A stretch of 64,000 nucleotides of DNA from an uncultured Bacillaceae bacterium (GTDB lineage: Bacteria > Bacillota > Bacilli > Bacillales > Alkalibacillaceae). The position numbers and the translations under genes were made by a program. This document shows positions 56,885 through 59,164 of this stretch, piece after piece (the stretch's first letter is position 1; every line of letters begins with the position of its first letter). Under the pieces are notes generated by a model. The model searched no databases. It had not been told where the DNA came from and saw only the letters and a program-made list of their open reading frames with translations. The stretch covers positions 4,961 to 68,960 of the forward strand of contig CALKAL010000049.1 in assembly GCA_937983065.1 (NCBI GenBank). Reading direction: 5' to 3'.

Positions 56885-57091
56885 TTACAAAAACCTCATT
56901 AATTGAACGATCACTAAAACCACGATAGTAATAGTCACAATCGTTGAAATGATTTTCTTAGAAATTTTTAGTAAACCTAATACAAGGACAAGTATAATAG
57001 CAACAACAATAGGCAAACCAACGATGTTAATTAAACTGTTTAAAAAATCGTTAACAGATTCACTCAAGAACGATGTAAAGTCGAAATCCAT
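56885..57091 (-). CDS. small 2-TM hypothetical protein
   Basis: AAGGGGGG RBS; hydrophobic; followed by terminator-like IR at 56811-56851. Confidence 0.65.
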   Translation of the reverse strand: MDFDFTSFLSESVNDFLNSLINIVGLPIVVAIILVLVLGLLKISKKIISTIVTITIVVLVIVQLMRFL

Positions 57092-57323
57092 ATTATCAAT
57101 CCCCCCTTAAATCATATATCGGTTGTAATGGAATTTTATATAATATATTCGTACAAATTAAGAATTTTACTAGAATTCTTTTTAATATTTTGCTTCGATT
57201 TTAAATTAACCACCTAGCTGTAGTTCGGATTAAATATATTTATTTAAAAGTTGATTAAAAGCCTGCCCCATTTCTGCTCCAATTTGCTCTTTTCTTTATC
57301 GCACTAAAGCAAATCATTAAACA

Positions 57324-57370
57324 TAAAAATAGCCTAAAACCATTGATGTGATTGGCTTTAGGCTATTTTT
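57324..57370 (-). terminator. terminator of tRNA operon
   Basis: AAAATAGCCTAAA / TTTAGGCTATTTT. Confidence 0.8.
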
Positions 57371-57376
57371 AATTAG

Positions 57377-57450
57377 CGTCCCAGGAGCGATTCGAACGCC
57401 CGACCGACAGCTTAGAAGGCTGTTGCTCTATCCAGCTGAGCTACTGGGAC
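57377..57450 (-). tRNA. tRNA-Arg(UCU), CCA not encoded
   Basis: cloverleaf GTCCCAG...CTGGGAC-G, anticodon loop CTTCTAA, TTCGAAT. Confidence 0.95.
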
Positions 57451-57463
57451 ATATAAACTTGTA

Positions 57464-57537
57464 TGGAGCGGGTGAAGGGAATCGAACCCTCGACAACAGC
57501 TTGGAAGGCTGTGGTTTTACCACTAAACTACACCCGC
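57464..57537 (-). tRNA. tRNA-Gly(UCC)
   Basis: GCGGGTG...CACCCGC-TCCA, anticodon loop CTTCCAA, TTCGATT. Confidence 0.97.
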
Positions 57538-57564
57538 ATATTATTTGATTTTAATATTATTTAT

Positions 57565-57700
57565 CGGAGTACACACTATAGGTACATTTTTCTCCGTGGT
57601 ACCTGTCCCTGCATCTGCTAGCTTATTCATGGATGCAAATGCTTCGGGACAACTCGTAGTTATGACACAGATGCTTTGCTCGTCACTAAACTACACCCGC
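57565..57700 (-). other. tRNA-Gly-derived unit with an 81-nt structured D-loop insert (57604-57684)
   Basis: first 17 nt identical to tRNA-Gly 5' end; after the insert GGTA and CCAC resume, then the tRNA 3' half is absent; multiple helices. Confidence 0.6.
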
Positions 57701-57725
57701 AATTTGCTTTATACAGACAAGATTT

Positions 57726-57755
57726 ATTATATATAATTAAATGCAAGTATGTCAA
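57726..57755 (-). promoter_or_regulatory. sigma-A promoter of tRNA operon
   Basis: TTGACA-N18-TATAAT with AT-rich upstream region. Confidence 0.8.
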
Positions 57756-57825
57756 GGGTAAATTTAAAAAATCAGATTGCTGAGAAGTATTTTATTTCTC
57801 AGCAATTAATTATATGTTACATCGG

Positions 57826-58413
57826 TTACCTAATTGTTTCTACTATTTTATCTAATGCCCGTCTGCGATGACTAATTTTATTTTTTTCGTCATCTCCTAG
57901 TTCAGCTAATGTTTCTTTATAACCGTCAGGAATGAAAATCGGATCATAACCGAAGCCTTCCGTTCCTTTTGGCTCAGTGGCAATGATTCCATCACAACGA
58001 CCTTCAACGACAATCGTTTCCTTCCCTGGCTGGGCTAAAGCGATGGCGCATATAAACGCTCCTGTTCGATCTTCATGAGGAACTTCAATCAATTTTTTTA
58101 AAACTTTTTGTAAATTTTTTTGATCATCTTTCGCTTCGCCTGCATAACGGGCTGAATAAATGCCTGGTTCACCATTTAACGCATCAACGACTAATCCCGA
58201 ATCATCGGCTAATACATTAATTTGAAAAGCCTCACTATACGCTTCAGCTTTCAATATAGCATTTTCTTTAAAACTCATCCCTGTTTCCTCAACATCTTGG
58301 GCCTCAGGGTACTTTTCATACAAACTAACTATATCAATATTTAATTGGTTAAACATTTGCTCATATTCTTTTAATTTACCTTTATTCGTCGTTGCAATGT
58401 AAAAACGTTCCAT
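57826..58413 (-). CDS. rdgB: XTP/dITP diphosphatase (HAM1 family)
   Basis: ATTNKGK, ADDSGL, GFGYDPIF, SHR. Confidence 0.96.
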   Translation of the reverse strand: MERFYIATTNKGKLKEYEQMFNQLNIDIVSLYEKYPEAQDVEETGMSFKENAILKAEAYSEAFQINVLADDSGLVVDALNGEPGIYSARYAGEAKDDQKNLQKVLKKLIEVPHEDRTGAFICAIALAQPGKETIVVEGRCDGIIATEPKGTEGFGYDPIFIPDGYKETLAELGDDEKNKISHRRRALDKIVETIR

Positions 58414-58417
58414 CGAT

Positions 58418-59164
58418 TTACTCCTCGTCAATCAATAAAGTAGATAATTCACCTAATGCGTCTTTTTGCAATTGGAAAAGTTCTTCAATTCCTTTGTTTG
58501 CGTGTTTTAGCATCACTTGTAGCTCATCGTATGAAAAGGTCGCTTCCTCACCAGTTCCTTGTATTTCAACAAATTTACCTTCATCCGTCATCACGACGTT
58601 CATATCAACAAGGGCAACAGCATCTTCTTCGTATGATAGGTCTAAGATTGGTTCATTATTTTCGGTTAGCCCAACAGAAATTGCAGCTAAAAAGTTTTTA
58701 ACAGGCATTTCTTTAATGAGTTCTTTTTTAATTAATTCACCACAAGCTAACGTCATTGCCACGAAAGCTCCTGTAATCGATGCTGTTCTCGTTCCTCCAT
58801 CAGCTTGAATGACATCACAATCAATCCAAATCGTTCGTTCACCTAATTTATTTAAATCGATCACTGCTCTTAAAGCTCTTCCGATTAATCGTTGAATTTC
58901 CATCGTCCGACCTGAAATTTTACCTTTTGAAGATTCTCTTATGTTACGGACTTCAGTGGCCCGAGGAAGCATCGCATATTCTGCTGTAATCCATCCTTTA
59001 CCTTCTCCACGCATAAATGGGGGAACTCGTTCTTCCACACTCGCATTACAGATTACTTTCGTTTCACCAATAGTAATTAATACAGAGCCTTCTGGATGTT
59101 TCGTAAATTCAGTAGTTATATTCACATCTCTTAATTGATCTTCAAGTCGTCCATCTTTCCGCAT
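58418..59164 (-). CDS. rph: ribonuclease PH
   Basis: [27 protein letters not shown]. Confidence 0.98.

Follow-up and report, generated by a model that had tools for sequence, protein, structure and literature searches.

Introduction

RtT repeats, known from the tyrT operon of E. coli (Rfam RF00391), are tandem units within a tRNA operon that each carry a piece of the neighboring tRNA; they are co-transcribed and processed out, and their function is obscure. R1 and R2 elements reside in rRNA genes and are co-transcribed with the host gene, and R2 is freed by an HDV-like ribozyme. Bacterial group I introns in tRNA genes (Rfam RF00028) occupy the anticodon loop of tRNA-Leu, fMet, Arg, and Ile and are longer than 200 nt. 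The miniature elements derived from IS200/IS605 (PATEs) and the REP/RAYT elements are small, non-autonomous, and multi-copy, with folded strands. Partial tRNA duplications are also found at integrase attachment sites, where the fragments flank kilobase elements carrying an integrase and where the 3′ part of the tRNA is usually duplicated (PMC9897764).

In this study, we analyzed a stretch of 64,000 nucleotides from an uncultured Bacillaceae bacterium (the window; all coordinates without a locus name refer to it). Upstream of its tRNA-Gly and tRNA-Arg genes lies a broken tRNA-Gly copy interrupted by an 80-nt block, which looks like an undescribed and uncatalogued mobile element targeting tRNA genes.

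The tRNA-Gly/tRNA-Arg locus of the window

The features of the locus are as follows, listed from the upstream side of the minus-strand tRNA operon.

58418-59164: RNase PH gene, upstream of the Ham1/RdgB gene (Pfam PF01138/PF03725)
57826-58431, minus strand: Ham1/RdgB-type NTP pyrophosphatase gene (Pfam PF01725, E 2.4e-69)
57775-57807, minus strand: rdgB terminator, hairpin and T-run (terminator-like site in the scan; T-run read directly)
57726-57755, minus strand: sigma-70-type promoter, TTGACA, 18 nt, TATAAT (12 of 12 consensus matches)
57684-57700, minus strand: 5′ fragment of tRNA-Gly(UCC), positions 1-17, ending in ...UUUAGUG, identical to 57521-57537
57604-57683, minus strand: conserved 80-nt core, ACGAGC...GGGACA (covariance model R1, 98 bits, E 7e-23)
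57646-57651, minus strand: 5′ strand of helix P2, UGUCCC, pairing with 57604-57609
57613, minus strand: U covarying with A57643 as a lone long-range pair, A-U in this copy and C-G in the major variant
57604-57609, minus strand: 3′ strand of helix P2, GGGACA, forming the 3′-terminal six bases of the core
57596-57603, minus strand: resumed tRNA-Gly, GGUA and then CCAC (positions 18-20 and 24-27; three A's lost)
57538-57595, minus strand: non-conserved tail or spacer with a CGGAG/CUCCG hairpin, up to the start of the intact tRNA
57464-57537, minus strand: intact tRNA-Gly(UCC) (ARAGORN; Rfam RF00005, 72.2 bits)
57376-57450, minus strand: intact tRNA-Arg(UCU) (ARAGORN, Rfam)
57323-57367, minus strand: hairpin and T-run 3′ of tRNA-Arg, likely the operon terminator (read directly)

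The consensus promoter that a first-pass annotation of this DNA had placed at 57726-57755 stands as described. It lies approximately 25 nt ahead of the tRNA-Gly 5′ fragment on the minus strand, and equivalent promoters are present in relatives with and without the element. The relatives also have the identical gene order, RNase PH and Ham1/RdgB, ahead of the tRNA-Gly/tRNA-Arg unit at the orthologous loci. The hairpin at 57323-57367 was not called as a terminator by the simple scan, probably owing to its long loop. No notable ORF is present in or around the element unit. A 68-aa ORF with a plausible ribosome-binding site and no Pfam match lies 3′ of the operon terminator (56885-57091, minus strand).

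The first-pass annotation reported an 18-nt duplication of the tRNA-Gly(UCC) 5′ end (57684-57701 versus 57521-57538), which BLAST and direct reading both reproduce exactly: a flanking T and GCGGGTGTAGTTTAGTG, that is, tRNA positions 1-17, at 57701-57684 on the minus strand equal 57538-57521. In a BLAST search of the unit against its own genome, this match has 100% identity and, taken alone, an E-value of 0.024; the duplication is considered real because of the family-wide pattern described below and not because of its E-value. The insert had been delimited as 81 nt (57604-57684). It is indeed a discrete block, but comparison across the family gives 80 nt (57604-57683), and the earlier boundary was one base off. 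The AG of the tRNA-Gly fragment occupies positions -4 and -3 relative to the junction. Directly after the core, GGTA (57603-57600) and CCAC (57599-57596) are read on the minus strand. Only 4+4 nt of tRNA sequence follow the insert, and 57596-57603 is the D-arm remnant of the disrupted tRNA-Gly copy. The arms of the CGGAG/CTCCG hairpin are at 57596-57592 and 57569-57565, and the fold energy of the whole leader is unremarkable (z = -1.5). A single copy of the element was found in its own genome (BLAST; MAG 80% complete). The window copy (UUUAGUG, core, GGUA) is a standard family member at the site between tRNA positions 17 and 18.

Distribution of the element family

A BLAST search of 31 genomes of the bacterial family recovered the same unit of approximately 100 nt in five further genomes, each time at the orthologous rdgB-tRNA-Gly-tRNA-Arg locus and in 1-3 tandem copies; one genome has three tandem copies with a period of 148, and another has two. 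A covariance model, R1, was built from ten copies. R1 matches 80 of the 151 sampled genomes of the order, representing 49 of 85 genera; the copy number per genome reaches 25 or more, and the remaining 71 genomes lack the element. The similar inserts in other Bacillaceae tRNA clusters that the first-pass annotation had mentioned are thereby borne out. None of the 141 sampled genomes from other orders of the class matched the covariance model at E <= 1e-5. In the genomes sampled, the element family is confined to one order, Bacillales in the GTDB sense, and almost all 80 nt of the core are conserved in more than 30 GTDB families. Among the matches listed in an exact-pattern scan of one genome per prokaryotic species, the hosts include Geobacillus, Parageobacillus, Anoxybacillus, Oceanobacillus, Virgibacillus, and Halobacillus, as well as Evansella, Alteribacter, Halalkalibacter, Cytobacillus, Neobacillus, Bhargavaea, and similar genera. 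One match to a Trueperaceae MAG among those listed was unconfirmed by the covariance model.

The Rfam search suggested in the first-pass annotation returned no family for the element. Rfam 15, which includes hammerhead, HDV, twister, pistol, hatchet, T-box, RtT, and Bacillaceae-1 among its families, has no match over the element in the window at E <= 10, and only tRNA is reported there at the gathering threshold. Likewise, nothing was found over the element in a four-copy Geobacillus locus (E <= 1) or in five non-tRNA loci (gathering threshold). A search of the full-text literature, including characteristic sequence strings, found no published description of the element.

No match was found in 50,697 phage records, and in the plasmid set only two Anoxybacillus amylolyticus replicons are positive. 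Four IMG/VR contigs (L199-L202) match, in which the element lies inside a host-type cluster of 15 tRNAs (Asn-Ser-Glu-Val-Met-Asp-Phe-Thr-Tyr-Trp-His-Gln-Gly-Cys-Leu) at the contig edges. These contigs are probably provirus boundary calls that include host DNA.

Insertion anatomy in tRNA genes

We collected 221 non-identical copies, 196 of which have a tRNA downstream. Nearly all of them lie within tRNA gene clusters on the same strand as the tRNAs, and every tRNA-linked copy is in the sense orientation. Of these 196, 183 have a 5′ flank that corresponds to the beginning of the next tRNA (at least 9 nt, at most one mismatch), and the fragment stays identical to the neighboring tRNA even where that tRNA varies between genera. 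The invaded tRNA copy is always truncated a few nucleotides past the insert and stands just upstream of the intact tRNA of the same kind. The median distance from the end of the core to the next occurrence of the tRNA 5′ end, usually that of the intact gene, is 45 nt, and the tails between them are non-conserved and differ between genera. Twelve isoacceptors are hit (Gly-UCC 69, Lys 26, Met/fMet 22, Arg-UCU 11, Asn 10, Asp 9, Thr-UGU 9, Phe 8, Ala 6, Thr-CGU 5, Val 4, and Arg-ACG 4), and more than 25 site classes are occupied.

Junctions fall in the D-arm and the anticodon stem, after tRNA positions 11/12, 14, 16/17, 24, 26, and 31, the commonest being position 31 of tRNA-Gly. All share the context AGNN followed by ACGAGC, with A at -4 in 213 of the 221 copies and G at -3 in 214, and the target is specified by this AG and a weak Y only, with two bases fixed. 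The target is an AG anywhere within the 5′ half of a tRNA, the junction lying 2 nt farther 3′, and some genomes also have non-tRNA sites. The first-pass annotation had placed the insertion in the D-loop and proposed that a covariance model might reveal copies at that same position of different tRNAs with compensatory changes. The window junction does lie between positions 17 and 18, and copies at different tRNAs with compensatory changes were recovered, but the D-loop is not the target as such and the junction positions vary.

The tRNA sequence resumes at the very next nucleotide after the core. The identity run has a mean length of 2.8 nt versus 0.41 nt in 200 permutations, and runs of at least 3 nt occur in 85 of 183 copies versus 3.4 expected (maximum of 8 in the 200 permutations). 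Because the tRNA continues from the next nucleotide, the core is a precise insertion without target duplication, and no target-site duplication was seen. The longest resumed run is 10 nt; the invaded copies end 1-10 nt past the insert and are followed by an unrelated tail. A simple insertion into an otherwise intact tRNA was not found among the 221 copies. In silico excision of the core, with a slack of 2 nt at both ends, yielded a tRNA spanning the junction in 0 of the 221 copies, so the core is not a functional intron. The suggestion of an unusual tRNA intervening sequence, made in the first-pass annotation, is therefore discarded.

The leader upstream of the fragment resembles that of the intact tRNA, with similarity decreasing from 0.78 at -1 to -5 to 0.38 at -26 to -30 (background, 0.49 to 0.28). 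Duplication of the whole spacer is seen in only 5 of the 58 units located behind another tRNA and was rejected as the source of the fragment. Copying from a mature, RNase P-cut tRNA was also rejected, since the leader similarity fades gradually and does not stop at +1. The gradual decay of the leader and the scarcity of whole-spacer duplications indicate that the duplication of the tRNA 5′ part was a DNA event with a variable left end.

Tandem arrays are frequent, with periods of approximately 120-165 nt. At locus L030 (837-1700, plus strand; genome G063), the interval between tRNA-Gly and tRNA-Arg contains an array of seven cores that recur every 121 nt. The first core abuts the CCA end of tRNA-Gly, in departure from the AGNN rule, and the cores of this array have ACAAGC in place of ACGAGC at both CGAG motifs. 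In genome G030 (L005:1187-1340, minus strand), a stray anticodon-arm fragment of tRNA-Arg lies between tRNA-Gly and tRNA-Arg and is followed by a divergent core copy, which stands in front of tRNA-Arg, is fused to a tRNA-Arg-like 5′ end, and has a compensatorily changed P2 (UCUC/GAGA). Upstream of the single unit at L007 (1600-1720, minus strand; G022) and L006 (G023), there is a 3′-end remnant of another unit (..GGACATAGTG.., then the same leader), and these remnants indicate that arrays shrink by internal deletion. In alkaliphile genera (L057, L059, L066, L086, L099, L127, L142, L150, and L151), the tails that follow the core and 3-4 resumed tRNA bases contain a second, shortened core-like module, ..CGGAGC..CATCGTCCGTAAGC..TGAATAAACTAC, which is conserved across Ala, Arg, and Lys sites.

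Structure of the core

The sole supported helix of the core, P2, is formed by the consensus UGYCYC after CGAGU (positions 39-44) and GRGRCA at the end of the core, across 36 nt. In 131 sequences, 99.1% of the cells are paired and five of the six pairs show compensatory changes, with pair counts such as UA 65/CG 64, CG 99/UA 26, and UA 92/CG 37. None of 500 shuffles attained the observed values, and slid controls were far lower. Columns 47 and 77 form a further covarying pair (CG 141, AU 32; 98% standard pairs). Compensatory pairs of this kind are what a structured RNA in general displays. The core also contains an internal repeat, GCAUC...GAAUAAGCUA, which occurs twice. Near-complete conservation of the 80 nt across families of the order, together with a covarying long-range helix, is a pattern that functional RNAs show more typically than MITEs do.

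Other candidate pairings were rejected. Helix P1 (GUAG with CUAC before CGAGUUG) is 59% paired without consistent covariation, and helix P2b (GCA/UGC), together with the competing helices in the window (57674-57668 or 57642-57635 with 57617-57611), is 39% paired in the family. Loop 1 does not covary with the 3′ part of the core, nor does the AG-Y motif with either GCU motif. The association between the base before AG and the second base after the core (CG 98, UA 29, and GC 21) is explained by the tRNA continuing across the insert. HDV-like and hammerhead-like folds were sought by eye, and the pairings they need are not conserved. The element also showed neither the terminal hairpins nor the inverted repeats that characterize known small transposons.

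Proposed mobility of the core

The locus is empty in genomes of the same genus as filled ones, namely G014 (the genus of the window), G021, and G003, and filled versions occur within these genera; one genome per species was compared, and no new insertion event was observed among them. In Anoxybacteroides voinovskiense, the cores at Gly-31, Thr-24, Asn-16, and Phe-11 are 90-93% identical, and their similarity ends exactly at ACGAGC and ...GGCA (an 80/81-nt unit), while the flanks are those of each own tRNA. Two of these copies have the base of the Gly-type junction at -1 instead of that of their own tRNA, which hints that AGC microhomology was used at the left end. The mean core identity is 0.786 between different tRNAs of the same genome versus 0.705 between the same tRNA of different genera.

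No mobilizing enzyme was identified. Genes for the Y1 (IS200/IS605) transposase, PF01797, occur in 120 of the 151 genomes whether or not the element is there, and G042 lacks them despite its 16 copies of the element; an association of this transposase with the element was rejected.

Comparison with described systems

The element resembles RtT in forming tandem units in a tRNA operon, each with a piece of the neighboring tRNA. However, RtT lies downstream, involves the tRNA 3′ end, is limited to one locus in one genus, and has no shared core at many tRNAs; there is also no Rfam match to RtT in the element. Like R1 and R2, the element has the appearance of a selfish sequence that occupies structural RNA genes which are multi-copy and highly transcribed; it lies in the sense orientation at a defined site and inactivates the invaded copy. 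In contrast, the R elements are kilobase retrotransposons encoding their own enzyme, whereas the core described here is 80 nt, non-coding, and without a recognizable HDV-like fold, and its targets are many tRNAs next to an intact copy.

With the IS200/IS605-derived PATEs and REP/RAYT, the element shares its small size, multiple copies, folded strand, and apparent non-autonomy. Strand-specific insertion 3′ of a short fixed target without duplication, as in IS200/IS605-type elements, was observed (after AGNN, with only two bases fixed). Hairpins near both ends and a linked Y1 transposase were not: P2 is the only supported helix, and PF01797 occurs independently of the element. The absence of subterminal hairpins, the RNA-like conservation of the interior, and the use of tRNA gene bodies as the target set it apart from these miniature elements.

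The first-pass annotation had argued that neither bacterial tRNA introns nor integrase attachment sites explain the insert, and we came to the same result for both. Group I introns likewise interrupt a tRNA gene in the sense orientation and leave no target duplication, but they yield a functional tRNA on splicing, unlike the element (0 of 221). A self-splicing group I intron was rejected on the basis of the 80-nt core, the D-arm and anticodon-stem sites, and the absence of an Rfam intron match at E <= 10. The tRNA fragment beside an intact copy of the same tRNA is reminiscent of attachment-site duplications, from which the element differs in having 80 nt plus a short tail in between and in duplicating the 5′ part (PMC9897764). 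An attachment-site origin was rejected because only the 80 nt and a tail of approximately 45-66 nt separate the fragment from the tRNA and no ORF is present.

Proposed origin of the element and alternative explanations

The small mobile element considered in the first-pass annotation fits the data best. We think it probable, with some reservation, that the core is a structured, non-autonomous element whose strand-specific insertion into tRNA genes occurs two bases past an AG, that it is kept only in truncated copies beside an intact one, and that unequal recombination multiplies it. A mobile (selfish) element of this kind would integrate in a strand-specific and sequence-guided manner, either by single-strand DNA transposition or by an RNA-mediated route. 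Its copies would survive only where a broken tRNA copy is harmless, and arrays would grow through unequal recombination. Because the invaded copy sits between the operon promoter and the real tRNAs, the window element is presumably transcribed within a long 5′ leader, as the promoter suggests, and RNase P would remove this leader.

The strong conservation and the covarying helix keep alive explanations in which the core serves the host or acts at the RNA level. It is possible, if unlikely, that the core is a host-serving structured ncRNA domain of tRNA operons that binds a protein or tRNA, or stabilizes or processes the leader, and that it was spread by duplication and gene conversion with the tRNA fragments as by-products. 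Conservation of nearly the whole core in so many bacterial families, covariation in P2 and at the 47/77 pair, and the invariable sense orientation in highly transcribed operons agree with such a role; the internal repeat, present twice, might provide a pair of binding modules, the next tRNA follows at a fairly uniform distance (approximately 45 nt), and the fragment tracks the identity of the neighboring tRNA even across genera in which that tRNA differs. However, precise footprints at more than 25 sites, including non-tRNA ones, are not needed for a host RNA gene. The element is also missing in 71 of the 151 sampled genomes and at the same locus in close relatives, and its copy number varies from 0 to more than 25, with decaying arrays. 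The notion that the core is a small ribozyme or intron-like RNA strikes us as improbable. Such an RNA would cleave and ligate into tRNA transcripts next to AG, followed by reverse transcription and genomic recombination, or would cleave itself from a co-transcript as R2 does in rRNA. In its favor, insertion into transcribed RNA genes is precise, always sense, and free of target duplication, a covarying helix closes a conserved single-stranded region in the core, and the invariant AG two bases before the junction looks like part of a recognition or cleavage site. Yet guide pairing to the AGNN flank shows no covariation, the gradual decay of leader similarity shows that the left end of the fragment is not that of the mature tRNA, the 80-nt core is much smaller than known self-splicing introns, and no Rfam ribozyme or intron matches even at E <= 10.

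A degenerate tRNA-Gly duplicate of the usual kind, interrupted by random filler and peculiar to the window genome, would account for the single copy in the MAG and for the ordinary fold energy of the leader, and we give it practically no chance, since it is refuted by hundreds of homologous copies with identical ends in 80 genomes. A more speculative idea, which we regard as doubtful, is that the core acts as an RNA, either as a tiny catalytic or guide-like module whose integration would take place at the RNA level after recognition of tRNA or of the AG context, or as a domesticated RNA of tRNA operons whose two GAAUAAGCUA modules bind tRNA or a tRNA-processing factor. Should the core act as an RNA, it would represent a new class of tRNA-linked RNA, restricted to Bacillales in our sample, and the tRNA gene fragments would be the footprints of its activity.

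If, instead, the preferred reading of a mobile insertion element is correct, an uncatalogued element resides in the tRNA operons of a major bacterial order, to which Geobacillus, Anoxybacillus, Oceanobacillus, and many alkaliphiles belong. This element breaks tRNA copies in a defined sequence context, builds tandem arrays of tRNA 5′ fragments, and, judging from the promoter, would be transcribed at tRNA-operon levels. This bears on the annotation of tRNA genes (pseudo-fragments), on assembly breaks at tRNA clusters, on the evolution of tRNA gene copy number, and on the search for small nucleic acids that target RNA genes. The covarying 80-nt core is short enough for direct biochemistry, and the insertion rule, two bases past AG without target duplication, provides a handle on the responsible enzyme or RNA activity.

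Copies outside tRNA genes

One Evansella genome has 46 dispersed copies, and none of 20 fetched sites is near a tRNA. The cores at these sites follow CCAGCG or CCAGTG inside a conserved composite repeat of approximately 300 nt that is common to Alteribacter. In Evansella and Alteribacter, the core is one domain of this larger repeat, and these copies may therefore not represent independent insertions. The composite repeat is non-coding and occurs in Evansella sp. AB-P1 (G318) at L179-L198 (e.g., L187:255-575, minus strand); further loci with it are L064, L068, L070, L084, and L087. It consists, in order, of TTGCATG..GGTCTACCCTGAAAATA, a GGAGTG...ACTCC hairpin, AGCG, the core, and GAGACAGG...GGAGGCTGAGGC..GCCCG. 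Dozens of dispersed copies are present, partly in arrays, with a strong fold (z = -4.4) and no Rfam match, and the scaffold copy at L193 carries a different insert at the same point. At L158 (3950-4130, both strands), two cores are arranged head-to-head with a hairpin of approximately 40 nt (CTGCGGGG...CCCGCAG) between them, and L158 also carries an RNase P RNA of class B at 1750-2146.
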